DNA of 64,000 nucleotides from Leptolyngbya sp. BL-A-14. Lineage in GTDB: Bacteria; Cyanobacteriota; Cyanobacteriia; Leptolyngbyales; Leptolyngbyaceae. Made by a program: the position numbers and the translations under genes. The notes beneath the pieces are model-generated. The model saw only the letters and a program-made list of their open reading frames with translations. It searched no databases and was not told the DNA's origin. Below are positions 21,140 to 61,349 of this stretch, piece by piece. Position 1 is the first letter of the stretch. Each line of letters opens with the position of its first letter. The stretch is taken from NCBI GenBank assembly GCA_041937185.1, contig CP166621.1:2068571-2132570 (forward strand), given 5' to 3'.

Positions 21140-21367
21140 TCAGGCTTGTTCGAGCCAATCATAAATTTGCTCCAACTGCTCCAGGGTCACTAACCCGTAC
21201 TGCCAGAGAATCATTGGCAATGGCCCCGGATCATGTTCCCGATGGCGCAGTGCGATGGCCAGCGAGGCAGCCGAAATTGACAGGTCTTCCTGCAGGAACC
21301 GAATCAATCGAGAGTAGGTTGTCGGAGCCGTCATGGTTGGCCTCAGAACTAGTGGTAAGTCAATCAA
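21140..21367 (-). CDS. Small conserved cyanobacterial hypothetical protein
   Basis: 75-aa ORF. Resembles a small cyanobacteria-specific family. Confidence 0.35.
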   Translation of the reverse strand: MIDLPLVLRPTMTAPTTYSRLIRFLQEDLSISAASLAIALRHREHDPGPLPMILWQYGLVTLEQLEQIYDWLEQA

Positions 21368-21995
21368 TAATTGACGGGTAGGTAAAGTCCGAGTTGTTGA
21401 TTAGGGTTAAATTTTCTGGGTCTTCGACCCGTCAAAATTTTCCTGACGGAACACTAGGACACTATTGTGAGTTAAGGAGTCAAGGGCTGAGAAGGCTATC
21501 AGCCAGTCTTTAAGCTGTCTACACAATTTCTAGTGGGACTATGTAGTTTCTATCTGACGAATGACACCCTTCATTCGATCAGCAACATCTGTGAGCGTAT
21601 TGGTCTCTCAGGGTCGTTAATGCCTACTTAAGCAAGCACAGTCACTAAAAGGCATCTGCGGATCTACAGAACCGCGCCACTATTTTGCCAGTGACTTTAG
21701 CTTTTCTTCAGCTTTTCTACGTAAAGTCTGAATCAGCGCTCAGTGTGTGATCGCTCAAAAGGCTGTCGAAACTACTTTTACTGCCTTTCTGCTGTGCCAA
21801 CAAAACGCGGGTTCAGTTTATCTTTGTTTACAGGAAGACCCAGACGTTTCTTTGAGCAACAGAAACTCCTCACATTAGATGCCCAGGTTAGCGGTTATTT
21901 GGGCTAGCAAACTCTACCCAGCGAAGGATTACAGTAGCACCAACGTCCCAAAAAGAATCTGAAATCCGGTAAGCTTTGTGGCACGGCAGGAGTGG

Positions 21996-46871: not shown

Positions 46872-47786
46872 CTAGTCAAAGGGGATCGTATCCACCCAGT
46901 CCTGATACTGTGGATCGCGCTTTTCAGTGATGGCAATCAGCTTGGCGCGTAGCTGGTCAGTGATGGGACGATCGACAGGCAGCATGTAGTTTTCGACCCG
47001 TTTGATAGGTGCCACTTTCGCCGCTGTCCCCGTCAGAAATGCTTCATCAGCGATGTAAAGCTCTGATTTATCCACCGGACGCTCGATCGTGGGAATGCCC
47101 AAATCCTTTGCCAACGTCAGCACGCTATCGCGCGTAATGCCCTCCAAAATATCTTGCTCAAACCCAGGTGTAATCAACGTCCCGTTACGAACAATGAAAA
47201 TATTCATCCCAGACGCTTCACTGACTTTGCCCTGAGCATTGAGCATGATGGCTTCATCAAACCCTGATTCGGCCGCTTCTGTTTTAGCAAGGGCAGAGGC
47301 AATATAGGCGGCCGTAATCTTGCCCCGCAGCGGCATGCTGTTATCGGCCTGACGCTGCCACGAACTAATGCGACAGCTTACCCCAGCGGGGGACAAATAA
47401 TCATCCATTGCCAAGCCGTAGACCAGGAAGCTCTTTTCTACCTGGTGAAGCCGAGGTGCAACGCCTAACCCAGACGTGTAAACCAGAGGGCGAATGTAAA
47501 ACGGAACGGTTGGGCGATTTTTTTGAATAAATTCGACAATGACTTGCTTGATGGTAGTGCTGGGCAAGTCGTAATGGAGAAAGCGAGCGCTTTGGCTCAA
47601 GCGATGACAATGGCGCTCTAGCCGAAATAACAGCACTTGATTCGCATTCTGCGGATCGGGAATGCCTCGTAACCCCCCGATCGCACCCGTACCATAGTGC
47701 AACGCATGGGTCGCGATCGAAATTTTGGCCTCTGTAAACGGTAGAAATTGGTCTTGAAGGTAGGCGATGGGTAAGAAATTGTCCAT
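46872..47786 (-). CDS. ilvE: Branched-chain amino acid aminotransferase
   Basis: Class IV aminotransferase motifs. 304 aa. Confidence 0.9.
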   Translation of the reverse strand: MDNFLPIAYLQDQFLPFTEAKISIATHALHYGTGAIGGLRGIPDPQNANQVLLFRLERHCHRLSQSARFLHYDLPSTTIKQVIVEFIQKNRPTVPFYIRPLVYTSGLGVAPRLHQVEKSFLVYGLAMDDYLSPAGVSCRISSWQRQADNSMPLRGKITAAYIASALAKTEAAESGFDEAIMLNAQGKVSEASGMNIFIVRNGTLITPGFEQDILEGITRDSVLTLAKDLGIPTIERPVDKSELYIADEAFLTGTAAKVAPIKRVENYMLPVDRPITDQLRAKLIAITEKRDPQYQDWVDTIPFD

Positions 47787-47833
47787 GAGTCTGTGTGAGT
47801 GATGAGATGAAAAGAAGCCAATAATGGCAAACG

Positions 47834-48298
47834 CTAGTGCTGTTGATAGTACTGTACGATTTGCGCGATGAATGACTGCCAGCGATCGTTTGGTTTCCAG
47901 ATGGCGTACAGATCTTGTGCAGCAAGCGTCTCATCCATGCCTTGACACAACCGACGGTAAAGATACAGAAACGCCGAAACCCGCATGTTTTTTGCACAGT
48001 GGACAAAAATCGGCTGTTCTGCGTGCGTTTGCATGACGCTGAAAAACTGTTGCACATCTGCCAGCGTTGGCTCTTCCCACACCACGGGAATAGAAATATA
48101 GGTCATCCCCTGCGCTTCGACCAGTGCCTGCTCGTTCGGTAATGCATTTGCCGAAGTCGGCAACGCCAGATTGACCACAACACGATAACCTGCGGCTTTG
48201 ATGGCAGCAATCTGCGCCTCGGTTGGTTGCCCTGCCGTAGCGATCGTGTCTGCAAGCTGGCGGTAATGAGGAATAGCGGCGATCGACGTTTCAACCAT
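47834..48298 (-). CDS. DUF442 / phosphatase-like (beta-lactamase hydrolase-like) family protein
   Basis: VHCAKNMRVS Cys-loop resembling a PTP-like fold. 154 aa. Confidence 0.5.
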   Translation of the reverse strand: MVETSIAAIPHYRQLADTIATAGQPTEAQIAAIKAAGYRVVVNLALPTSANALPNEQALVEAQGMTYISIPVVWEEPTLADVQQFFSVMQTHAEQPIFVHCAKNMRVSAFLYLYRRLCQGMDETLAAQDLYAIWKPNDRWQSFIAQIVQYYQQH

Positions 48299-48564
48299 AC
48301 TGAACTGTGGGCAATGTGTTGCTATCTCCAGTACAACACAATCTTTCTGTGTAGAAACAGCAGATTTCGCAGTATTCCCTGACCGAGTAAATCAAAGCGC
48401 TTTATTATCTCTTCTTTCCAATTTCGCCTCTGCCTTGTATGACATGAGACTTATTTTCTCCATCTTCAGGTTTAAACTTTGCTGATACGTCAATCCATCA
48501 TTTCCTTGGACACATCATTTCCTTGGACACATCATTCCCTTGAACACATCATCCCCTCAAACAA

Positions 48565-48831
48565 ATGAGACAAGAACTCACAGAACAACGACAGGAGCAA
48601 TATCTGAAATTGATTGAAGCGTTGTTCGCTTGCCCTAATGGACAGGAACCAGTCATTCTCGATGCCCAACCCGATCTAATTGATGCCGGGTTGGTGCAAT
48701 CACTGGTCAAAGTTGGCACGATGATGGCTCACCAAGAAAATCAAGAAGGTGCCCAGTTTCTCTTCCATGTTGCCCGTGAATTAGCCATCCAGCTAAACCT
48801 ATATGCTCAACCAACGGCGAAGGAGTCATGA
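48565..48831 (+). CDS. Hypothetical protein (translationally coupled to the next ORF by an ATGA overlap)
   Basis: ORF. Stop/start overlap at 48828-48831. Confidence 0.35.
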   Translation: MRQELTEQRQEQYLKLIEALFACPNGQEPVILDAQPDLIDAGLVQSLVKVGTMMAHQENQEGAQFLFHVARELAIQLNLYAQPTAKES

Positions 48832-49151
48832 TGACCACTCTTAACCGATCGACCGATGACGTTGGGCAACTCGCGATCGCCTTTCTCATGGAGGATCTGG
48901 AGATTCCAACCGATGATCAAGAATGGTTTTCGGTGTTGAATGTGCGGCCTGTAGGAGAAACCTGGGATGTCGTGGAGATTGGCGTCGAAGGGCTCCCTGA
49001 TAAATGGGTGCTGCAAGTTTACGACACGGGGGAGTGCGACCCCAGCTATACCTTTAGCTCTCCTGTAAGTGCGTCAGAAGCAGATACTGGCTTAGAAGAT
49101 CTGCCAGAGCCGATCGCCAAGATCTTAGCCGCTGAACGCACAAACACCTAA
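48828..49151 (+). CDS. Hypothetical acidic protein
   Basis: ORF. Asp/Glu-rich. Coupled to the upstream ORF. Confidence 0.35.
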   Translation: MMTTLNRSTDDVGQLAIAFLMEDLEIPTDDQEWFSVLNVRPVGETWDVVEIGVEGLPDKWVLQVYDTGECDPSYTFSSPVSASEADTGLEDLPEPIAKILAAERTNT

Positions 49152-49234
49152 TCGCATCTTGCCCTGGAAATACGGGTGTGGGGTGTAGGGGTAGGGTATG
49201 GCGAATGCAAAGGGAAGTGGCTGTAAGGGAAGCA

Positions 49235-50071
49235 TTACTGCATTGGTGGCATCACCACTTTGCGAGCTAACCCCAATCGTTTTAACAGCCAGATTGCCCA
49301 CCAGGTCGGGTCGTATTCCCACCAGCGCCATCCGGCTTTGGCAACATTAGGGTAGGCATGGTGATTGTTGTGCCAGCCTTCCCCATACGTGAGGATCGCT
49401 GCCCACCAGAGATTGCGCGAGTTATCGTCTGTTTCAAAAGTACGATAGCCCCACATATGAGTAATGGAATTGATAAACCAGGTGCTATGCCAGAGCAAAA
49501 CAGCTCGAACAACCATACCCCAGATGATAAATTTCCAGCCTCCGAGGACATATAACAATAGACCCAGGGGGATTTGCAGCAGCAAAAAGTTTCGATTCAA
49601 CCAACGATAAAAGGGATCGCGTGCCAGATCAGGGGCAAACCGCTCGTACTCCTCATAGTTAAAGAATTCTGAATGGGGATAAAAAATCCACAGCATGTGG
49701 CTCCACCAAAAGCCACGACGGGCAGAGTAGGGATCTTTATCCACATCTTCGGTGTATGCATGGTGCAACCGATGCCCTGAAACCCAGAAGATGGGGCCGC
49801 CCTGTAACGCTGTGGCTCCGATCAGGGCAATAATATACTCTAACCACTTGGGCACCTGAAAGCTGCGATGGCTCAAGAGACGGTGATAGCCTAAACAGAT
49901 CCCAATGCTGCCAAACAGCCAGTGTAGAAATAAGGTCATCCCCAACGCGGACCAGGAGAAAAACCAGGGTGCTGTCAGCGCCAGCAGGTGAACGCTGCCG
50001 AAGAAAATGACAGCGACCCAATCTAAAGCAGGTTCATGCTTGGGGTTTATTGACACGTTATTACCAGTCAT
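49235..50071 (-). CDS. Acyl-lipid delta-9 fatty acid desaturase (DesC/DesF-like)
   Basis: Histidine boxes HRLHH, HNNHH. Start moved to the ATG at 50071 (GAGGA SD). The upstream part of the ORF translates a repeat. Confidence 0.85.
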   Translation of the reverse strand: MTGNNVSINPKHEPALDWVAVIFFGSVHLLALTAPWFFSWSALGMTLFLHWLFGSIGICLGYHRLLSHRSFQVPKWLEYIIALIGATALQGGPIFWVSGHRLHHAYTEDVDKDPYSARRGFWWSHMLWIFYPHSEFFNYEEYERFAPDLARDPFYRWLNRNFLLLQIPLGLLLYVLGGWKFIIWGMVVRAVLLWHSTWFINSITHMWGYRTFETDDNSRNLWWAAILTYGEGWHNNHHAYPNVAKAGWRWWEYDPTWWAIWLLKRLGLARKVVMPPMQ

Positions 50072-50100
50072 CAAAAAAATCCTCAACCACAGTAAGTAGA

Positions 50101-50240
50101 TAGAAAGGGGGAAGGAGTGAGAGAGCGGGTGGGTGAGAGAGTGGGTGGGTGAGAGAGTGAGAGCACACATCATTCCATCACCTCGTTATCCCCTCACCCC
50201 ATCACCGCATCATCTCATCATCCCGTTATCTCAACACCTC
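50101..50240. repeat. Purine-tract then pyrimidine-tract repeat block (GTGAGAGA / GGTGATGG units)
   Basis: gggggaaggagtgagagagcgggtgggtgagagagtgggtgggtgagagagtgagag ... catcacctcgttatcccctcaccccatcaccgcatcatctcatcatccc. Confidence 0.75.
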
Positions 50241-52275
50241 ACGACCAGGCTGTTACTGCTGGTTCTAGAAGGTTGGCAATCGCAGGATCTTGGTACGTCC
50301 CATTGCGATGCGTGATTCTAACGGCATTCGCCAATTGCTCAATCGGTGCCCCTTTTAAGTAGATGGCATCGGCTCCTGCCGCGATCGCCTCTGAGACGAT
50401 GGATAGTTGTCCAGGGCTAACCAGCACCAAAATTTTGGATGGGATGACGTAAGAATTTGCTTGAGCCTTACGCGCCATCCGAATGAACTTAGCCAGATCC
50501 ATATCGGGTAAAGTCCCATCAACCACTGCAACATCAACATCAATGGATTCCAACAGCACAATCCCTGTTTCAGCATTGGTGGCTTCGCTGGCAACTTCAA
50601 TGCCATCTTGGGCGCGCAAATCTATCCGCAGCTTAATACGTGTCTGTTCATCAGCCTCAATGAGAGCAACCTGAATCACATCATGAGGTTTCTGTACTTT
50701 GATGTAGCCACTGGCTTCTGATGGTTCATTCGGCCCCCCGCAAGCTGAAATGGTGCCAAGGGAATCAACATCAGCTGAAACCTGCTTCAGTTGAGCCATT
50801 TGCTCGGCAGACAGAATTCTGGATTCATCAAAGCCGAACTCAATTTCGGTATGTAGCCCTTTCTGTTTGACGCGGCTCAAATTGTAGAAGCGCTTGTTGA
50901 GTGTCGTTTTGACAAAAGCCCAGAGGCAGCCCAGGAGGTAACGCCGCTTAAACGGATCGGGCTCAAACCAATATTCTAAAAACTTCCAGGAATAGAAACG
51001 AGCATAGTTCCGCAACACGCCTTTAAGTACACCCTCCCGCGTCATATTGTCGGGTTTGATGATGGGCGTCACAAAGTTGTAATGGGAATAATCGCGGATT
51101 TCAACTTTATCCTGTAAATCCTGAAATAGTTCTGAAAACGGCCAGGGGGTGTACATGTTCCAGTTGGTCATGTCCGCTTTCCAGTCGCGCGCCATCCGGT
51201 AGGTTTCCTCGATGGTTTCTGGCGTTTCACTGGGTAAGCCCATAATGAACTGGACTTCTGCCAGGATGCCATTGTCACGCAGAAGCTCTACAGCGCGCTT
51301 GTTGTCAGCGATCGTCGTTTCTTTGCGGAACAGATTGAGATTTAACTGCGCGGCCGCTTCTGTGCCGAGAGAAACATGCACCAATCCCGCTTTGCGATAC
51401 AGAGGCAGCTCCTTTTCATCCCGCAAAATATCGGTTACGCGGGTGTTAATGCCCCAATGTACCCCCAGGTTGCGCTCAACAAGCTCATGGCACAGTGCCA
51501 CAAAGCGCGATTTGTTGATCGTGGGTTCTTCATCGGCCAGGATGAAAAAGCCGACCTTATGCTCCTTCACCAACTGCTCGATTTCATCCACAAAGTTTTG
51601 GGGCGATCGAGAGCGATATTTGCGCCAGAACTTCCATTGCGAACAAAAGCGGCAGCGGAAGGGACACCCACGCGAGTAATTGGGCACAGCCACCCTCGTA
51701 TTGAGGGGCGTGTACTTGTAGGTGTTCCAATCCAGCAGCGACCAATCTGGAGTGAGCGTGTTCAGATCTTTGATCGGTGGGTGGGCTGGAGTCGCGACGA
51801 TTTTGCCATCTTCCAGGAAGGCCAATCCCAGGATTTGGCGACGATCGCGTGCGTCGGTGCCAGCTGCGATCGCCCGCAGCAAATTGACCGTGATCTCCTC
51901 ACCTTCACCCCGAATGATGTAATCCACCCAGGGAGCTTCACTTAACACCTCTCGATACATATAAGTGGGATGCACACCACCCATGATGGTTTTGGCGTTT
52001 GGGCAAACGTCTTTGACCAGCTTCAATGTTTTCTGAGACTGATAAATCATGGGCGTAATTGCCGTCGCCAACACAACATCCGGTTGATGCTCGCGAATCA
52101 TGTCTGCCAGTGCAGCATCGGCAATATAGTTAGTCATCGCGTCAATGAACCGAACGTCATTGAAGCCTGCGGTCTTTAAAGCACCGCCTACATAAGGCAC
52201 CCAACTAGGCGGCCAGTTACCAGCGATTTCTGCACCACCGGAGTGATAGTTGGGTTGAATCATTAAAATACGCAT
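50239..52275 (-). CDS. B12-binding radical-SAM enzyme (BchE-like anaerobic Mg-protoporphyrin IX monomethyl ester cyclase family) with fused C-terminal receiver(REC)-like domain
   Basis: N-terminal B12-binding region. CPFRCRFC radical-SAM cysteine triad. C-terminal ~130 aa carries REC motifs (VVDGTLPDMD, LVLVS, YLKGAP). Confidence 0.75.
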   Translation of the reverse strand: MRILMIQPNYHSGGAEIAGNWPPSWVPYVGGALKTAGFNDVRFIDAMTNYIADAALADMIREHQPDVVLATAITPMIYQSQKTLKLVKDVCPNAKTIMGGVHPTYMYREVLSEAPWVDYIIRGEGEEITVNLLRAIAAGTDARDRRQILGLAFLEDGKIVATPAHPPIKDLNTLTPDWSLLDWNTYKYTPLNTRVAVPNYSRGCPFRCRFCSQWKFWRKYRSRSPQNFVDEIEQLVKEHKVGFFILADEEPTINKSRFVALCHELVERNLGVHWGINTRVTDILRDEKELPLYRKAGLVHVSLGTEAAAQLNLNLFRKETTIADNKRAVELLRDNGILAEVQFIMGLPSETPETIEETYRMARDWKADMTNWNMYTPWPFSELFQDLQDKVEIRDYSHYNFVTPIIKPDNMTREGVLKGVLRNYARFYSWKFLEYWFEPDPFKRRYLLGCLWAFVKTTLNKRFYNLSRVKQKGLHTEIEFGFDESRILSAEQMAQLKQVSADVDSLGTISACGGPNEPSEASGYIKVQKPHDVIQVALIEADEQTRIKLRIDLRAQDGIEVASEATNAETGIVLLESIDVDVAVVDGTLPDMDLAKFIRMARKAQANSYVIPSKILVLVSPGQLSIVSEAIAAGADAIYLKGAPIEQLANAVRITHRNGTYQDPAIANLLEPAVTAWS

Positions 52276-52309
52276 GGCTTACTTTCCTTTCTCAACCAAT
52301 GAATATTCA

Positions 52310-52440
52310 TTTGGAGATGGATGATGGGAAGGGGTGATGATGGAATGATGAGGTGATGAGAGGGGGAGATGATGGGATAGCGGGATCTCCTACGCTCTTA
52401 CGCTTCCTCACCCACTTACCCAGCCTTCCACCCTGCCACC
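52310..52440. repeat. Purine-tract then pyrimidine-tract repeat block (GATGATGG units)
   Basis: gagatggatgatgggaaggggtgatgatggaatgatgaggtgatgagagggggagatgatggg ... cgcttcctcacccacttacccagccttccaccctgccacccacgc. Confidence 0.75.
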
Positions 52441-52445
52441 CACGC

Positions 52446-53843
52446 TTATACCGCTCTTGAGAAGTTGGATGTTGTGTTTTGCTTGAAGTAAGCATCAAAC
52501 GCCGAAGCAATATTGCGAATCAGCAACCGCCCGGCAGGCGTCACTTCAATGTGATTCGGGGAATGCCTGATTAACCCATCCACTTCTAAGCGACGCAGTT
52601 GGAATTTTTCAGAGGCAAAATACGTTTCAAAATCCAGATCAAAGCCAAGGTGGTATTTTTCTTCCACATCCTGAGGAGAAAGCTGAAATTGACACATCAA
52701 TTCCATAATGACCGTGCGTCGAATGATGTCATCCTGGCTTAAGGTAACGCCTCGCTCGATCGGCAATTCATTGGCATCGATCGCTCGATAAAAATCTTTC
52801 AGGCGCTTATGATTTTGCACATAAACATCGTTCAGCATGCTAATCGAGGTCACACCAAAGCCGATCAAATCGGATTCTGGTTTCGTCGTATAACCCTGAA
52901 AGTTCCGGTGTAGCAGTCCTTCACGCTGGGCAATCGACAATTCATCCTCAGGTTTGGCAAAGTGATCCATGCCAATGTACTGATAGCCATGCTGGGTTAA
53001 CTCATCGATCGCCATTTGCAGAATCTTGAGTTTCTCAGCGGCTGAAGGTAAGGCCTCCTGGGGAATTCGCTTTTGGACTGGTTTGAGCCACGGCACATAG
53101 GCAAAGTTGAAGACGGCAATGCGATCGGGATCGAGTTGAAGCGTTTTGCGAATGGTGTCTCGGAACGTTTCTAGCGTTTGATAGGGAAGTCCATAAATCA
53201 AATCCACATTCACGCTTTCAAAGCCTGCATCCCGGCTCCACCGCATGACATCAAACAGCATGGATTCTGGCTGTACTCGATTGACCGCTTCCTGCACCTT
53301 CAAGTTAAAGTCCTGGATGCCAAAGCTAATCCGGTTAAAGCCCAGATTCTTTAACGAGGCAAGATAGTGTTGATCTAATGCTTTGGGATTGACCTCAATC
53401 GAAATTTCAGCGTTCGGATCAAAGCGAAAATGCTCGTGAATCGCTGTCCATAGCGTTTCAACCTGCTTCAGCGAAAGATAGTTCGGCGTGCCTCCGCCCC
53501 AGTGCAGTTGGTGAACGGTGCGATCGCCATCAATTAATTGAGCCATCTGCTGAATATGCCTGATCAGATAACTCAGGTAATGCTCAGCCAGTTCCTTACG
53601 CTGCGTAATGACCGTATTGCAACCGCAGAAATAACAGGCGCTGTCACAAAACGGAATATGGCAGTAGAGCGACAGAGGTGTTTTTTTATAATTACTGACC
53701 GCGATCGCCGCTCTAAAATCAATGTCTTCAAACTCTGGTTTTAACTCGGTCGCTGGGGGGTAGCTGGTGTAGCGCGGTACGGGCTGGTCGTATTGTTGCA
53801 GGAGTTGAGCGTCAAACTGCACAGTGGGCAACAGATGTTGCAT
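52446..53843 (-). CDS. hemN: Oxygen-independent coproporphyrinogen III oxidase
   Basis: Radical-SAM CxxxCxxC (CDSACYFCGC). HemN length and C-terminal domain. Confidence 0.9.
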   Translation of the reverse strand: MQHLLPTVQFDAQLLQQYDQPVPRYTSYPPATELKPEFEDIDFRAAIAVSNYKKTPLSLYCHIPFCDSACYFCGCNTVITQRKELAEHYLSYLIRHIQQMAQLIDGDRTVHQLHWGGGTPNYLSLKQVETLWTAIHEHFRFDPNAEISIEVNPKALDQHYLASLKNLGFNRISFGIQDFNLKVQEAVNRVQPESMLFDVMRWSRDAGFESVNVDLIYGLPYQTLETFRDTIRKTLQLDPDRIAVFNFAYVPWLKPVQKRIPQEALPSAAEKLKILQMAIDELTQHGYQYIGMDHFAKPEDELSIAQREGLLHRNFQGYTTKPESDLIGFGVTSISMLNDVYVQNHKRLKDFYRAIDANELPIERGVTLSQDDIIRRTVIMELMCQFQLSPQDVEEKYHLGFDLDFETYFASEKFQLRRLEVDGLIRHSPNHIEVTPAGRLLIRNIASAFDAYFKQNTTSNFSRAV

Positions 53844-54290
53844 GGTGTTCTCGGTGGTAAGGGTGGGAGTGAAGCGTGAGAAGTCAAGGAGGATGAGCTG
53901 GGAGGTGGTAGTCGCGCTGCAGTGGCATTGGGGATTAACCGCATGAAGCCGTTGAACCGCACTAGGGCGTGCTTTAAAACCTTCGGGTCGTTGCCTTGAC
54001 TCTTGGTGATCCCCCTAAATCCCCCTTAAAAAAGGGGACTTTGAATGGTTCAGTTCCCTCCTTTTTAAGGAGGGTTGGGGAGGATCAAGGGTTTTAAAAT
54101 ACAGCCTAGGGGGCAGGAGTCACGCAAGAGTGTTCCAGCCAAATGAAGTGGACTGTCCTTCTGAAAGCCATTTGGTTTGAGTTTCTGGAGGAAAGACTGT
54201 GGCCAGTGGCATCGTGCGATCGTCGCTGTAGCGTAAAGAGCTACTGGTCAGAACGGTGCCAGATCTGAGCGCGTCCACGCTCCCATTGTT

Positions 54291-55046
54291 CTAAATGCTG
54301 TACTCAATGGCAGGTGCTTTGGCAACGCCGTGCGGAGGACGCTCAGTCGCGCCAGGAATTTCCTGACGGGTGAGTAGATCAAACACGTGGTCACCAATAA
54401 GCGCTTTCACGTCTGGTTCCAGATCATGCATCACATCCCGGTTGAGACGGAAGGCATCGTTTGCTTCATCCACAATGTGCTGAATGTCTAGGTCATTCAA
54501 GGGCAATGCGTTCAAGGCATCCCGGTATTTTTCCTTGAAGGCACGTTTAGCTTCCACCGTTGGTAGTTGCTCAAATTCGTGCAGTGCCGTGCCTTGATCG
54601 GGCGGCAACTTTAAAGCAGACCGGATAATGTTTTTTAATGCTTGCCCACCCGAGAGATCGCCCATATAACGGGTGTAGGCATGGGCAATCAACAGGATGG
54701 GTTCGGTGTTGGCAACGGTGTGGATGCGATCGACATAGACCTGCCCTGCCGGTAAAGCCACAATTTCCTCCCGCCAGCGATCGCCATAATAGAAGGCCAG
54801 ATCGCGTTCGAGATTAGCAGCGCGGTAAATTTCGGGAAACACAATGGGAGCAATGGCCGGATGCTCACTGTGCCGCTGTAGTTCTGTTTCTAACGCGCTG
54901 TAGACCAGGTATAAATTTGCAAGCAGTTTGCGGAAGGGTTCCCGTTCTACAATGCCTTTGAGAAAACATTTCATGAAAGCGGTGTTTTCAGCAGCGGTAT
55001 GGGAATGCTTGGTGCCTTCACGAAGGCGGGTTGCTAAAGTACTCAT
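54291..55046 (-). CDS. Heme oxygenase (ho2-type, in the low-oxygen cluster)
   Basis: MSTLATRLREGTKHSHTAAEN proximal-His helix typical of HO. Confidence 0.85.
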   Translation of the reverse strand: MSTLATRLREGTKHSHTAAENTAFMKCFLKGIVEREPFRKLLANLYLVYSALETELQRHSEHPAIAPIVFPEIYRAANLERDLAFYYGDRWREEIVALPAGQVYVDRIHTVANTEPILLIAHAYTRYMGDLSGGQALKNIIRSALKLPPDQGTALHEFEQLPTVEAKRAFKEKYRDALNALPLNDLDIQHIVDEANDAFRLNRDVMHDLEPDVKALIGDHVFDLLTRQEIPGATERPPHGVAKAPAIEYSI

Positions 55047-55056
55047 GGCAATCTTC

Positions 55057-56130
55057 CTATTTTATGGCGGTTCTAGCTTGTTCGGCGTTAATCGAGGGCA
55101 GGAAATAAAGGCGCAACAACTGCCACCCGATCACAGCGAGCCAGGGCAGTTTTTGCAAAAATTGGATGGGTTTGGGACGCTTCGCCTGAGAAATTTCGTC
55201 TAATTTTTGATTGGCGATCGCGCAGCGCTCTAACCGCGAGAAAAATTCAGGATGCTCGGTATCCATGACGCTGGGGAACGCTCGCACAGAGGTTGCATTG
55301 GTCTGGCGAATGACTTCTTCGTTATAGGCGCGTGGATCAATGCCCAACGATTGGTAGAAGGTAGAGCGTTCCAGTACGGTCAGCGTATGCGTTGCAAAGA
55401 CCGTGAGCAAAAAGAAACGCGCCCAGAGTCTCGACTGCCAGGTGTTCCACAGCTTGGGTTGCGATCGCAGCAGCACCTTGAAGAAATCGCCATGCCGATT
55501 TTCGTCCTGACACCAGTTCTCAAAATAGCGGAACAGTGGGTAATAACGGTTTTCTGGATGCTGCTCAAGATGGCGGAAGACGAGAATGTAGCGCCAGTAG
55601 CCAATCTTCTCAGACAGGTAAACGGTGTAAATAACCCATTCTGGCGGGAAAAAGGTATAGGTCCGATGTTTGGTTAAGTAGCCCAGGTCGAGGGATAACC
55701 CAAAGTCGGCCATCGCCTTATTCAAAAAGCCTGCATGACGGGCTTCATCTCGCGCCAGCAAGCTAAAGGCTTCGGATAACACGGGATTGCGGTCTTTGAG
55801 CTTGCGGGAGAGTTCTTTGAAGAGCAGAAACCCCGAAAATTCTGATGTGCAAGACCGTTCTAGAAAGTCAATGAACGATCGCCGAGTTTCCCCATCAATG
55901 TGCTCCCAGCATTGCTCAAACTCTTGATTACGGACAAAATGATGGCGGTTATAGTCAGCTCGCAATTCTGCTAAAACGGCTTCTATTTCATCCGCTTGCC
56001 CCGATAAATCCATCTGAGCAACGGCATCGAAATCAGTGGTGTAAAAGCGAGGGGTTAAGAGCGTTTCTTGAACGGGTGATTTTATACCTGGACGCATCCC
56101 GGACTCAGTCGCGGGCGTTGAACTGACCAT
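55057..56130 (-). CDS. acsF: Mg-protoporphyrin IX monomethyl ester oxidative cyclase (AcsF/ChlA, chlAII-type copy)
   Basis: Di-iron carboxylate motifs (EFSGFLLFKE...ARDEARHAGF; DENRHGDF). 357 aa. Confidence 0.9.
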   Translation of the reverse strand: MVSSTPATESGMRPGIKSPVQETLLTPRFYTTDFDAVAQMDLSGQADEIEAVLAELRADYNRHHFVRNQEFEQCWEHIDGETRRSFIDFLERSCTSEFSGFLLFKELSRKLKDRNPVLSEAFSLLARDEARHAGFLNKAMADFGLSLDLGYLTKHRTYTFFPPEWVIYTVYLSEKIGYWRYILVFRHLEQHPENRYYPLFRYFENWCQDENRHGDFFKVLLRSQPKLWNTWQSRLWARFFLLTVFATHTLTVLERSTFYQSLGIDPRAYNEEVIRQTNATSVRAFPSVMDTEHPEFFSRLERCAIANQKLDEISQAKRPKPIQFLQKLPWLAVIGWQLLRLYFLPSINAEQARTAIK

Positions 56131-56376
56131 AGGATTGATGCTTCTAATCGTGACTGAGCAACATCTTTCCGCGAATCGTCAAACCTCCGCAAGACAGTTA
56201 CCATCGCTGCGCTATAGTTACCGCAAGTAAAGCATTAGTACGCTGTCTGGCTTTGAGGCAGTTCTAAAGAAATAATATTTTTTGTTAGCACTGGCTAGAA
56301 GGGCAGGCAAAACGCCTAGAATGCTGGTAGCAGCGCAGTTTTCCAAGTCGCTTTCTCCTGCTAGAAGATCTGACCG

Positions 56377-56742
56377 ATGCTAGAAACGAATCCGTGTATT
56401 GAGGCTCAATGTCCGATCCAGTTCGTATTAGATGTTCTGGGCAACAAGTGGTCCATTCTCGTTTTGCGGGAGCTTTTTGGGGGCGATCGACGAACGCATG
56501 AACTGCTCACCGCACTACCAGGCATTAGCACCAAAACGTTGACTCAGCGACTTCGATCGTTAGAGGCACAAGGGCTGGTTGAACGTCATATCTATGCAGA
56601 AATTCCGCCTCGCGTGGAGTACGCCCTTACGCCAAAGGGTCGTCAGATCAAGCCTGTGATGGCGGCGCTGCACGAAGTCGGTTCGCAGTGGCTAGAGCAA
56701 GATCCGTGTGTTTGCCCCTTAAATCTCGTGGAACAACCGTAG
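56377..56742 (+). CDS. HxlR-family winged-helix transcriptional regulator (divergent from acsF)
   Basis: CPIQFVLDVLGNKWSILVL signature of HxlR/DUF24. Confidence 0.8.
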   Translation: MLETNPCIEAQCPIQFVLDVLGNKWSILVLRELFGGDRRTHELLTALPGISTKTLTQRLRSLEAQGLVERHIYAEIPPRVEYALTPKGRQIKPVMAALHEVGSQWLEQDPCVCPLNLVEQP

Positions 56743-56993
56743 GCTTTCAGGTTCAGAATGGTGCAAGTTGTTTCTTTTTGATCGCCGCGATCGCCTTACA
56801 ATCATTGAGCAAGCGGTTAGGATCACAGATTAAATAAAATCGAATATTCTGGCTGTACGGGCGAAGCATTCGGCACTTAACGCCGCCTGAGTTGCAAGGT
56901 TTTTGCCCGTAGCTTGCTTCCCGCAGGGTACGCTTCGCCCCTACCAAAGCTTATTGACTTCTCATTCCTTAATGCCTCAAACACTCTGCTTCC

Positions 56994-57773
56994 ATGTGCC
57001 AACTGCTCGGAATGAACTGCAATACACCAACCGACATCTGTTTTTCCTTTGAGGGGTTTTCAGCACGAGGAGGAAAAACAGACGAACACCGGGACGGGTG
57101 GGGCATTGCGTTTTTTGAAGGGGTTGGGTGCCGTATTTTTCTCGATGAGAAATCGTCGTTCACCTCCCCTGTGGCGGATTTAGTCCGGCGTTATCCCATT
57201 AAATCAACCCATGTCATCGCGCATATCCGTAAAGCGACCTTCGGTGCAGTGGCGCTAGAAAACTGCCATCCCTTTCAGCGAGAACTTTGGGGCCGCTACT
57301 GGATCTTTGCTCACAACGGCGATTTACCGGACTTCTACCCAGAGAATGCTGGCTTTTATACACCTGTAGGTCAAACCGATAGCGAGCGAGCGTTTTGCTT
57401 ACTGTTGAATACCCTGCGGCAAACCTTCCCTAATGGCAAACCACCGCTGCAAGACCTTTACCCGGTGCTGCAAGCAGTAACACGCACCATTGCCGCCAAA
57501 GGCAGCTTCAATTACTTATTATCGGATGGGGAGCATTTTTTTGCCCACTGCTCTACCAAGCTTTGCTACATTGTGCGCCAGGCTCCCTTTGCAGCGGCTC
57601 ACCTCATCGATGCGGATCTCACGGTAGATTTTCAGGAATTGACGACTCCGCGCGATCGCGTCGCTCTCATTACCACTGCACCCTTAACAGATAATGAAGT
57701 CTGGACAGCGATTGAACCCGGAGAGCTACTGGTTTTTCATGATGGATTGCCCCTAAAACCTCCGAGGTTTTGA
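56994..57773 (+). CDS. Class II (Ntn) glutamine amidotransferase, YafJ-type
   Basis: N-terminal MCQLLGMNCNTPTD with the catalytic Cys2 after Met. Confidence 0.8.
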   Translation: MCQLLGMNCNTPTDICFSFEGFSARGGKTDEHRDGWGIAFFEGVGCRIFLDEKSSFTSPVADLVRRYPIKSTHVIAHIRKATFGAVALENCHPFQRELWGRYWIFAHNGDLPDFYPENAGFYTPVGQTDSERAFCLLLNTLRQTFPNGKPPLQDLYPVLQAVTRTIAAKGSFNYLLSDGEHFFAHCSTKLCYIVRQAPFAAAHLIDADLTVDFQELTTPRDRVALITTAPLTDNEVWTAIEPGELLVFHDGLPLKPPRF

Positions 57774-57853
57774 ATGCCCCGGAGGTTTGAACGTTTTCAC
57801 TCTCGATGCGTGACAAAATAAATGCGCCTCACTCAATGGAAACTTCTAGAAAC

Positions 57854-58069
57854 CTACCTTAAAAGCGCTTTCACCAATTTAGGGTGGAGTTGCTCAGGGG
57901 TAAAGGCCGGTTCATTCGGCGGGTAGAGTTCTTCTTCAGCAAAGGCAAACCCATACGCACTGCTCAAGGCCACTAATTCTTTAGCCCGTTCACAGGCTTT
58001 TAGCTTGTCTTGTAATTCCGCGTCTGTTTTAGCCTTCTGGGCAAAAGAGATGATTTGACTGATAGACAT
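57854..58069 (-). CDS. Nif11-domain small protein
   Basis: QIISFAQKAKTDAELQDKLKA...ELVALSSAYGF resembles the Nif11 N-terminal leader-type domain. Confidence 0.5.
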   Translation of the reverse strand: MSISQIISFAQKAKTDAELQDKLKACERAKELVALSSAYGFAFAEEELYPPNEPAFTPEQLHPKLVKALLR

Positions 58070-58852
58070 AGGACACGTCCTGGTTTAAGTTCTCCAAAAA
58101 AAGTGAAAAGCAAACTGCTTTCATTTGAATTTTACGGATAACTATCCATGCTATTGCAAGCTCCTCCATGAAAACCTTGTTAGCGTTGTTTTGATGCTTC
58201 TTCACACTTTGAGTCATATTGCTTCAAGCTATGAGACCGCTGAAAGATGTTTTGTACTTTCAAAATTGCTTTGAGACGGGGATTCTAGCCATAGTTAATC
58301 GATAACGTTGCGATCTCGCTTCAGGGTTAAGCTCAGATGATCGGAGATTGATAAAAATTGCAAATGTTATTAAATACCCACAAAGAAATTGAAGATGGAA
58401 GCGCAGTTCTTTCAATCAGACCGCTAAAAGGTTGAAAAGTTCGGAGGTTGAGCGCACAATTTAGTCCACCATCAGGAGCAATCGCGTCGAATTAAGCCGC
58501 ACGTACCAGGGCAAGGGCTGCTCTTTGATGGTTTGCCATGTCTCCTTAAACACTTTTGCCTGGGCATGGTAATCCTGTGCTTCTACAGGACTTGCATTAA
58601 ATTTGAGAAACAGCGTGATCCGGTGTAGTGATTCGTTCGATGAGAGAACCATTCCTGTCGCAATTGGACTGCGAACGGTTTTAGTGCGGTCATCAGCTTT
58701 ATCCCAAGCGAATCAAACAAATGAATTGACTATGCCACCAGGCAATGCACAACGCTTTCCATTGAAAGAGCCTGTTCAGCAATAGTTTTCTGTGTGCGTT
58801 ACTCTGCGATCGATCGCGCTTGCATCCTCTAACCTACCTCTAAAAACATGGA

Positions 58853-59263
58853 TTAGAGGATAATGGCCTGACTGCGCGGACACGTCTGTAAATCTTGCCC
58901 TGTATCAATTGATTGAAGACCAATCCAGGCATCAATCGCTAACATCTCAAAGCCTACCGATCGTCGATCGCCAACCTGCATGAGAGGACGGCGAATGAGC
59001 AGTGGGTTTTGCACCATCAACCGTAAAGCTGTTTCTGCCTGTACGACTTCAGGAATGATGTCCCCTGTTTTGATCGCAGGTGCCGATCGATTGAACCAGT
59101 CTGCCACGGGAAGCGAGCCAAAAAAGGGGCGGAGGCTTTCTGCTGTCCAGGGTTCAGTCAGTAAATTGTGTGCCTGCACGTCATGGCCTGCGGCCTTTAG
59201 CACCGCTTTTTGCTTAGTGTTATTAATGCAGCCCGGCTTTTCATAAAAAAGAACAGTAGCCAT
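58853..59263 (-). CDS. ArsC/Spx-family protein (nitrogenase-associated ArsC-like type)
   Basis: VLFYEKPGCINNTKQKAVLKAAGH thioredoxin-like N-terminus of the ArsC family. Confidence 0.6.
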   Translation of the reverse strand: MATVLFYEKPGCINNTKQKAVLKAAGHDVQAHNLLTEPWTAESLRPFFGSLPVADWFNRSAPAIKTGDIIPEVVQAETALRLMVQNPLLIRRPLMQVGDRRSVGFEMLAIDAWIGLQSIDTGQDLQTCPRSQAIIL

Positions 59264-60206: not shown

Positions 60207-61349
60207 CTCAGTACAGGACAAAAAGCTTGAAAAGAGGAGCAGGGTAGGGTTTCATCAGAATTACCACACTCTTGAGAAACCCTATGAGTCAATATAGCGA
60301 ATTAAAGCAAGTCCTCCAAGCGCAATTAAATTGGCATGGTGCGAGGCTTTCCTTTCTGGCGTTGTTCCTGTTAGCGCTGCTGAAAGTCAAAACGGTGAAC
60401 TTGAGCGAACTGTGTTTAGGTTTTGGTGGAAAGGCGTTGCCCGAATCAAGCTACAAACGGTTGCAGCGGTTTTTTCGAGCATTTGACCTCGATTACCCAC
60501 AACTGGCTAACCTCGTGGTGAGTTGGATGCAAATTCCAAGTGGCTGGGTCTTGAGCCTGGATCGCACGACCTGGAAATTTGGCACTCACTGGTACAACAT
60601 TCTGACCTTAGGGATTGTGCATGAAGGGGTTGCCTTCCCCGTGCTGTGGTGGCTGCTGGACAAGCAAGGGCATGTCAATAGTGACGAGCGGATGCGGTTC
60701 ATGGAGACCTTTGCCAAACGGTTCCCCACGGCGGTCATCAACTACTTGTGTGCTGACCGAGAATTCATCGGGCAAGCCTGGGTGCGCTATCTCCTGCTTG
60801 AACCCGCCTTAGCCTTTCGCTTACGGATTCGCGGCACTGACCAGATTGAGCACGATGGCAAAGTGCTGGCGGCACGGGTCGTGTTTGCGCATTTGCAAGT
60901 GGGGCAAGCCCAGCACCTCACAGGCACTTGCCGGGTCTGGGGCTACCCAGTGGCAATCGAAGCGCTGCGCCTTGAGGATGGGGAGCTACTGGTGGTGATT
61001 GCGCCCGTCGGGGCGCAGGCTTTGGTCAAAGATTATGCCTTGCGCTGGGGCATCGAAACGTTGTTTGGCCTCTTCAAAACGCGCGGCTTCTGCTTGGAAT
61101 CCACTCACTTTACCGAGACTGAGCGCTTGAGTAAGTTGTTCGCTTTGTTGACCTTAGCTCTGTGTTGGGCGATGCGAACGGGTTTATGGTTGCAGCAATG
61201 GCAGCCCATTGCGCTTAAAAAACATGGTCGTCGTGCCAAAAGTTTGTTTCACTTCGGCCTCGATTTTTTGCGCCACTTAGTGCTCAATCCATCAGTGGCT
61301 AATAAGTCCGACTTTGTGCAATCCCTACAACTTTTGTCCTGTACTTAGC
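60207..61349 (+). mobile_element. IS4-family insertion sequence (1143 bp) with 9-bp target duplication CTTGATAAT
   Basis: 18/19-bp TIR CTCAGTACAGGACAAAAAG / CTAAGTACAGGACAAAAG. Identical 9-mers at 60198-60206 and 61350-61358 immediately flank the ends. Confidence 0.8.
60272..61348 (+). CDS. IS4-family DDE transposase
   Basis: C-terminal YALRWGIETLFGLFK motif typical of the IS4 group. Confidence 0.8.
   Translation: MRNPMSQYSELKQVLQAQLNWHGARLSFLALFLLALLKVKTVNLSELCLGFGGKALPESSYKRLQRFFRAFDLDYPQLANLVVSWMQIPSGWVLSLDRTTWKFGTHWYNILTLGIVHEGVAFPVLWWLLDKQGHVNSDERMRFMETFAKRFPTAVINYLCADREFIGQAWVRYLLLEPALAFRLRIRGTDQIEHDGKVLAARVVFAHLQVGQAQHLTGTCRVWGYPVAIEALRLEDGELLVVIAPVGAQALVKDYALRWGIETLFGLFKTRGFCLESTHFTETERLSKLFALLTLALCWAMRTGLWLQQWQPIALKKHGRRAKSLFHFGLDFLRHLVLNPSVANKSDFVQSLQLLSCT

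Follow-up and report, generated by a model that had tools for sequence, protein, structure and literature searches.

The divergent chlR/chlAII-ho2-hemN-chlE-desF locus of Leptolyngbya sp. BL-A-14 is very probably a compact form of the cyanobacterial low-oxygen regulon

ChlR (Sll1512) is described as a MarR-type regulator similar to HxlR, and the "4Cys-type" ChlRs exhibit a Cys-X4-6-Cys-Pro motif close to the N-terminus (PMC4500134). In Synechococcus 7002, according to the same source, the ChlR gene lies upstream of acsFII in divergent orientation and its targets are acsFII, ho2, hemN and desF. The ChlR operator is given as TTMCC-N3/4-GGWAA (2026 review, PMC13421787). A bchE gene immediately downstream from the chlAII-ho2-hemN cluster has already been reported for Cyanothece PCC 7425 (PMC4500134), and bchE orthologues from Cyanothece were able to complement a Rhodobacter mutant in bchE (Yamanashi et al. 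2015, as cited in PMC4944227). Here we describe a related locus in a 64,000-nucleotide stretch of the Leptolyngbya sp. BL-A-14 genome (contig CP166621.1, positions 2,068,571 to 2,132,570; "the window" hereafter), in which five leftward genes, chlAII (acsFII), ho2, hemN, chlE (bchE) and desF, face a divergent gene for a regulator of the HxlR family.

This locus very probably represents the low-oxygen regulon of cyanobacteria for tetrapyrroles and lipids, in its most complete compact form, chlR <-> chlAII(acsFII)-ho2-hemN-chlE-desF. It is another case of the described system and not a new variant. The database labels "HxlR family" and "winged helix-turn-helix" hide what is very probably a ChlR, so that the apparent variant locus is a textbook low-oxygen regulon; this correction is the main value of the analysis. 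The gene identities, the assignment to paralogues, the orthology of the regulator (through a proxy), the conservation of the operator-like box and the synteny come from the sequences compared here. From the literature on Synechocystis 6803, Synechococcus 7002 and Cyanothece 7425 we infer, by analogy, the oxygen sensing by an Fe-S cluster, the activation, the co-transcription and the enzyme activities. At low oxygen, a homodimer of ChlR (121 aa) would use its Cys-X4-Cys-Pro motif to assemble an O2-labile [4Fe-4S] cluster, bind the palindrome TTACT-N3-GGTAA about 100 nt upstream of chlAII and activate one leftward transcript encoding ChlAII, haem oxygenase 2 (HO2), HemN, ChlE and DesF. ChlAII, HO2 and DesF would be low-oxygen isoforms of enzymes that require O2, and HemN and ChlE would serve as O2-independent radical-SAM replacements. 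Their joint effect would be that the synthesis of chlorophyll, haem, bilins and unsaturated lipids continues under micro-oxic or anoxic conditions.

An earlier reading of the window from its letters alone (the sequence-only reading) had placed here five co-directional genes on the minus strand and a divergent HxlR-family gene. All six open reading frames (ORFs) are present at those positions and on those strands, and each passes its family model (Table 1). The intergenic spacers from acsF to desF measure 10, 447, 170 and 167 bp, the last being 65 bp with the longer desaturase ORF.

Table 1. Features of the locus, in window coordinates
Feature	Position	Strand	Evidence or remark
chlR, HxlR-family regulator	56377-56742	+	PF01638, 111.8 bits (cut-off 20.8)
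Divergent chlR/chlAII promoter region, 246 bp	56131-56376	.	three conserved blocks by phylogenetic footprinting
Second conserved block TTTCTTTAGAA, near-palindrome	56262-56272	-	unchanged in the 4 closest loci; upstream of chlR by about 105-115 nt
Candidate ChlR operator TTACT-TGC-GGTAA	56218-56230	-	some 100 nt upstream of the chlAII ATG; 9/10 match to TTMCC-N3/4-GGWAA
48-nt composite box: palindrome and two GWAACT repeats 20 nt apart, then CTTG	56186-56233	-	conserved in 8/8 loci
acsF (chlAII/acsFII)	55057-56130	-	TIGR02029, 518 bits (cut-off 192.5)
ho2, haem oxygenase	54291-55046	-	PF01126, 271 bits
Hairpin-forming dispersed repeat, MITE-like (CCCTCCTTAAAAAGGAGGG ... CCCCTTTTTTAAGGGGG)	53963-54109	.	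-44.8 kcal/mol, z = -2.8
hemN, O2-independent radical SAM coproporphyrinogen III oxidase	52446-53843	-	TIGR00538, 717.9 bits (cut-off 325)
chlE (bchE), B12-dependent radical-SAM Mg-protoporphyrin IX monomethyl ester (MPE) cyclase with C-terminal receiver domain	50239-52275	-	TIGR02026, 769.9 bits (cut-off 481)
ChlE receiver (REC) domain, about aa 535-655	50311-50673	-	PF00072, 29.4 bits, just below the cut-off of 30.2
desF, fatty-acid desaturase ORF as called	49235-50173	-	PF00487, 82 bits (cut-off 29.7)
desF from the probable Met35 start, 278 aa	49235-50071	-	orthologue lengths and alignments

The regulator is a protein of 121 aa, within the size range of ChlR (about 120-150 aa), that starts with MLETNPC7IEAQC12P and ends with ...DPC111VC113P. 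Its Cys signature, C7-X4-C12-P13 followed by C111-X-C113-P114, is of the 4Cys type. Each of the four cysteines is kept in 118 to 120 of the 120 best homologues, among which the X4 spacing is dominant (112/120). Over its full length the protein is 75% identical to a regulator of Picosynechococcus NIES-970, which exhibits Cys7/Cys14 as published for the 7002 ChlR and lies divergent to acsFII-ho2-hemN-desF. Judged by this signature and this orthology by proxy, the window regulator is very probably ChlR, of the MarR/HxlR type. The sequence-only reading had presented the adjacent regulator as HxlR-type instead of ChlR. Since ChlR is itself MarR/HxlR-like and the window protein carries the ChlR Cys signature, no such contrast exists; it stems from database naming and not from biology.

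The enzymes were classified with the help of 80 AcsF loci fetched from representative genomes, the neighbours of which were scored for homology to the haem oxygenase (HO), HemN, ChlE, DesF and regulator of the window. A neighbour-joining (NJ) tree of 84 AcsF sequences, the reference Sll1214 and Sll1874 not being among them, separates into two clades with 100/100 bootstrap support, and the window AcsF falls in the clade linked to ho2 and hemN. Every locus with an adjoining ho2 or hemN belongs to this clade, and the other, ChlAI-type clade is free of such neighbours. Four genomes (Chlorogloeopsis ULAP02, Aliinostoc HNIBRCY26, Pantanalinema CENA516 and bin J06633_8) are represented once in each clade, which marks the two as genuine paralogues that correspond to ChlAII and ChlAI. 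The AcsF translation exhibits the two E-x2-H motifs (DEARH, DENRH) of a di-iron cyclase. For the haem oxygenase, the references were crystal-structure sequences. The window protein aligns without gaps to Synechocystis HO-2 (1WOV; 321.7 bits, 62% identity) and with two gaps to HO-1 (1WE1; 254.4 bits, 52% identity), and a tree groups HO-2 with all in-cluster HOs to the exclusion of HO-1 (bootstrap 85). A placement of AcsF or HO with the constitutive chlAI/ho1 clades, which had been named as the finding that would overturn the assignment to a low-oxygen gene set, did not occur for either protein, and that assignment therefore stands.

HemN matches both PF04055 (Radical_SAM) and PF06969 (HemN_C), with the CxxxCxxC motif CDSACYFC in its translation. 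The desaturase, with its three His boxes HRLLSH, HRLHH and HNNHH, shares 79% identity with the in-cluster DesF of Picosynechococcus NIES-970, encoded downstream of hemN, where the ChlR-regulated desF of strain 7002 also lies, and is 74-83% identical to desaturases encoded downstream of chlE or hemN at other loci. It is predicted to be a low-oxygen delta-9 acyl-lipid desaturase isoform, an assignment made by orthology to in-cluster DesF and not by a tree against DesC. The orthologues, 277-284 aa long, align from Met35 (nt 50071), which is therefore the probable start of translation, for a protein of 278 aa; a GAGGA lies 9 nt upstream of this start. The ORF as called gains 34 codons through a low-complexity stretch (50072-50173), and the chlE-desF spacer (50072-50238) contains a purine-rich run, GGTGATGAGATGATG..., and after it CTCTCACCC-type pyrimidine repeats.

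For phylogenetic footprinting, the 246-bp divergent region was aligned with those of Pegethrix, Phormidesmis and a Microcoleaceae metagenome-assembled genome. This four-locus alignment reveals three conserved blocks, the central one of which contains the candidate operator palindrome. In six orthologous promoters a TTAC-N5-GTAA core is found at -100 to -111; in Picosynechococcus the copy reads TTACC-ACA-GGTAA and agrees fully with the published ChlR palindrome. The palindrome is part of a longer composite box, as the GWAACT direct repeat begins at its right half-site. The distance from the end of this box to the chlAII ATG is 59 nt in the window and 59-79 nt across eight loci. The box is present in all eight loci, from Picosynechococcus to Leptolyngbya, in which chlR is adjacent and acsF runs in the same direction as ho2; within the 64-kb window it occurs only once. 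The search for a shared motif in this region, proposed along with the sequence-only reading, thus returned a conserved 48-nt box with a 9/10 ChlR palindrome.

The second conserved block, TTTCTTTAGAA, may be a promoter element of chlR or a second operator. In the more distant loci L001, L017 and L019 it can be recognised as ATTTCTT(T/C)A, and in L006 as a weaker CTTCTTCA. An analysis of k-mer conservation over 28 acsF upstream regions returned only AT-rich words of low complexity and was replaced by the alignment of the closest promoters. Elsewhere in the window, at 21439-21550 (minus strand), there is a second, weak match to the GWAACT repeat with its 20-nt spacing (3 mismatches), together with a perfect TTCC-N5-GGAA palindrome, preceding a 64-codon ORF (21140-21334, minus strand). 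It is probably due to chance (about 0.05 such matches are expected per window), and it could be a minor ChlR target.

A single transcript for all five genes is weakly supported, by the single ChlR box and the lack of terminator-like sites in the spacers. A consensus scan found 4 promoter-like sites versus 7.3 expected and 9 terminator-like sites versus 7.7 expected. It revealed no minus-strand site of either kind in any spacer and is therefore uninformative. One may suppose instead that the genes do not form one operon, ChlR driving only chlAII-ho2 and internal spacer promoters driving hemN, chlE and desF, possibly in response to other signals. We consider this unlikely, for all that the spacers are large, the 447-bp one with an inserted hairpin repeat, and that comparable sub-modules occur separately: chlE or chlE-desF stands alone at loci L003, L088 and L090, and ho2-hemN-chlE-desF is divergent from acsF at L002 and L004, so these sub-modules can work with promoters of their own. 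However, the window has one ChlR-type box only, its minus-strand spacers contain no terminator-like site and its promoter-like matches are below chance level; Phormidesmis exhibits the same gene order with shorter spacers, and acsFII, ho2, hemN and desF are all listed as ChlR targets in Synechococcus 7002 (PMC4500134). The repeat itself, inside the ho2-hemN spacer (53844-54290; the Phormidesmis spacer is 96 bp there), recurs at unrelated places in eight further loci of cyanobacteria and has no Rfam match. It looks like an insertion of the miniature inverted-repeat transposable element (MITE) type that enlarged the spacer, and does not belong to the core of the system.

The gene between hemN and desF had been called "BchE-like". 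Its position is confirmed, but the label is too weak: the TIGR02026 score (Table 1) lies well above the cut-off, and by sequence the gene is a true BchE/ChlE. The TIGR02026 match covers residues 2-495, PF02310 (B12-binding) and PF04055 (radical SAM) match as well, and the translation contains the CxxxCxxC motif CPFRCRFC. ChlE is 90-91% identical to the Pegethrix and Phormidesmis proteins. Its identity to B8HM76 of Cyanothece PCC 7425, the gene of which sits downstream of ho2-hemN, is 81% overall and 88% over the catalytic 495 residues. Going by the description in the review, B8HM76 would be the product of the exact gene tested in 2015. It might be argued that this BchE homologue is no MPE cyclase and has another role, or a regulatory one exerted through its receiver domain, given that the "BchE-like" paralogues of Synechocystis 6803 take no part in pigment synthesis and that a REC fusion is atypical of a biosynthetic enzyme. 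This is very unlikely in view of an equivalog score of 770 bits, far over the cut-off, the 88% identity of the catalytic part to that of the Cyanothece protein, the complementation by Cyanothece bchE orthologues as cited above, and the tight linkage of chlE to tetrapyrrole genes in 9 of the 12 chlE-bearing loci, the window included. An Rfam scan of 47000-59000 at E <= 1 gave no match, and so no riboswitch (e.g. cobalamin) before the B12-dependent chlE.

Also very improbable is that the regulator is a different HxlR-type protein that would make the locus a regulatory variant of the chlAII operon: its Pfam and NCBIfam labels are indeed only HxlR or RrpA/RrpB-like (the RrpA/RrpB-like scores being under the family cut-offs) and public annotations read "winged helix-turn-helix / HxlR family" and never "ChlR", but ChlR has itself been described as MarR-type with HxlR similarity (PMC4500134), the Cys-X4-Cys-Pro motif with two further conserved cysteines is that of a 4Cys-type ChlR, and both the 75% identity to the in-cluster Picosynechococcus orthologue and the published ChlR palindrome in the shared promoter speak for ChlR.

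Several points weigh against the identification of the locus as the ChlR-controlled low-oxygen regulon. The orthology of the regulator to Sll1512 and SYNPCC7002_A1993 was judged only through the congeneric proxy NIES-970. Taken by itself, the palindrome shows no enrichment in the window (8 matches at <=1 mismatch versus 10.9 expected); it was therefore dropped as a window-wide predictor and used only together with position and conservation. The eight loci used to train the position weight matrix (PWM) of the composite box are also those that it scores. This matrix finds no match at the divergent acsF<->ho2 loci or upstream of solitary chlE genes, so the box is not claimed as a universal ChlR site; the existence of divergent acsF<->ho2 loci without it means that the rules for ChlR sites are not universal. 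Co-transcription and induction at low oxygen are predicted by analogy, and the 447-, 170- and 167-bp spacers could hold internal promoters.

Twelve chlE-bearing loci, including that of the window, were compared for gene order. The arrangement chlR <-> acsF-ho2-hemN-chlE-desF is shared by three of them (window, Pegethrix and Phormidesmis). Three others (Cyanothece 7425, Egbenema and Thainema) exhibit acsF <-> ho2-hemN-chlE-desF, and a further three (L060, L087 and L089) acsF <-> ho2-hemN-chlE with no desF. The chlE-desF pair is alone in one locus, of Planktothrix tepida, and chlE is alone in two (L088 and L090). The sequence-only reading had taken the bchE insertion for a variant organisation; this does not hold, given ho2-hemN-chlE-desF in Cyanothece 7425 and the six-gene layout in Pegethrix and Phormidesmis. 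The usual place of chlE is between hemN and desF, and among filamentous cyanobacteria this gene (BchE plus REC) is far commoner than the 2015 review, which speaks of "two Cyanothece strains", would suggest.

The REC domain of ChlE, on which the sequence-only reading was silent, scores just under the Pfam cut-off in the window protein. Matches to CheY (E = 7e-7) align D586, S620 and K641 of ChlE with the phospho-acceptor Asp and the Ser and Lys residues. PF00072 is found in all of the 120 best ChlE homologues (78-100% identity, many genera), including the Cyanothece 7425 enzyme, and D586 is kept in 117, K641 in 120 and E540 in 120 of these 120. At positions 559-586 the stretch IEVASEATNAETG.V.LESIDVDVAVVD hardly varies. 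Ala occupies the second acidic pocket position in 42/120, the window included, and 18/120 have Ala or Asn at position 620. Conservation of the domain is above that of the linker and tail and below that of the catalytic core. By this pattern, the REC domain is under clear purifying selection. In a library clustered at 50% identity (1.84 billion representatives), the BchE+REC fusion forms one cluster only; the next full-length BchE relative (63% identity, 581 aa) is without REC and aligns only to residues 1-525. A literature search, which did not reach the primary ChlE paper, found no paper on a receiver domain of BchE/ChlE.

These features suggest, tentatively, that the cyanobacterial anaerobic cyclase is under direct post-translational control through REC, a second layer above transcriptional control by ChlR; we hold this for a real possibility, somewhat short of a probable one. 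Such control could take the form of phosphorylation by a kinase, or of a pseudo-receiver docking a partner, e.g. an electron donor. The domain is the one feature of the locus that the searched literature does not plainly cover, and it offers a lead to the possible switching of an O2-sensitive radical-SAM enzyme inside a cell that produces oxygen. Genes for a histidine kinase and a response regulator converge directly on chlE at L089 (11193-17979, Stigonema) and L090 (11072-12241, Leptolyngbya "hensonii"). A cognate histidine kinase was considered and rejected: kinases converge on chlE in only these two of the twelve loci, the window not being one of them, and the linkage is not conserved.

Other genes near these loci were noted. 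After desF, Pegethrix (L085, 13133-15802) and Phormidesmis (L086, 13008-15600) have genes for a radical-SAM protein (about 278 aa), a Fer4_12 protein (about 208 aa) and an NMO-family oxidoreductase. An NMO gene also directly follows chlE or hemN at L060 (2256-3350) and L082 (3-998). No homologue of these rSAM-Fer4_12-NMO genes was found in the window, where desF adjoins two small conserved plus-strand ORFs (48565-49151). In three genomes, a protein of about 900 aa combining a cyclic nucleotide monophosphate (cNMP)-binding domain, a sigma54-activator-type AAA+ domain and Fer4_5 is encoded within a few kb of chlE (L003, 1-2321; L086, 1520-4228; L087, 12194-14926), often beside an aldehyde-deformylating oxygenase; it has no homologue in the window. 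On the other side of the locus, a DDE_Tnp_1 transposase ORF (60272-61348, plus strand) lies about 3.5 kb past chlR, with a class-II glutamine amidotransferase ORF (56994-57773) and an ArsC-family ORF (58853-59263) in between. None of these three is kept beside chlR in the other genomes.

The locus can be compared with four described or sequenced systems. The first is the Synechococcus 7002 regulon (Ludwig et al. 2014, as relayed in PMC4500134). Both loci exhibit a divergent regulator and the order acsFII-ho2-hemN...desF, a regulator of the 4Cys type (75% identity to the congeneric NIES-970 protein), and an operator palindrome about 100-111 nt upstream of acsF; DesF is 79%, HemN 69% and AcsF 69% identical to the proteins of the 7002-type system. 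Unlike 7002, the window has chlE between hemN and desF, X4 instead of X6 as the N-terminal Cys spacing of its regulator, and a ho2-hemN spacer enlarged by the hairpin repeat. Synechocystis 6803, where chlAII-ho2-hemN is under the control of ChlR Sll1512 (Aoki et al. 2012, as presented in PMC4500134 and PMC13421787), shares with the window the core gene order, the regulator family, the Cys-Xn-Cys-Pro motif and the type of palindromic operator, and its HO-2 is 62% identical to the window HO; in contrast to the window, its chlR is unlinked, it has no functional chlE and its operon contains no desF.

Cyanothece PCC 7425 has the order ho2-hemN-chlE-desF and the receiver domain on ChlE (B8HM76) in common with the window. 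Unlike in the window, its chlAII is divergent from ho2, and within the 6.7-kb contig examined there is no chlR and the ChlR box of the window was not found. The layouts of Pegethrix bostrychoides GSE-TBD4-15B (L085) and Phormidesmis priestleyi (L086) are identical to that of the window, their promoters being alignable with the same conserved blocks, and differ from it in three more co-directional genes past desF. The layout of the window is thus a combination, at the level of a lineage, of two published arrangements, that of Synechococcus 7002 and that of Cyanothece 7425, and not a new organisation.

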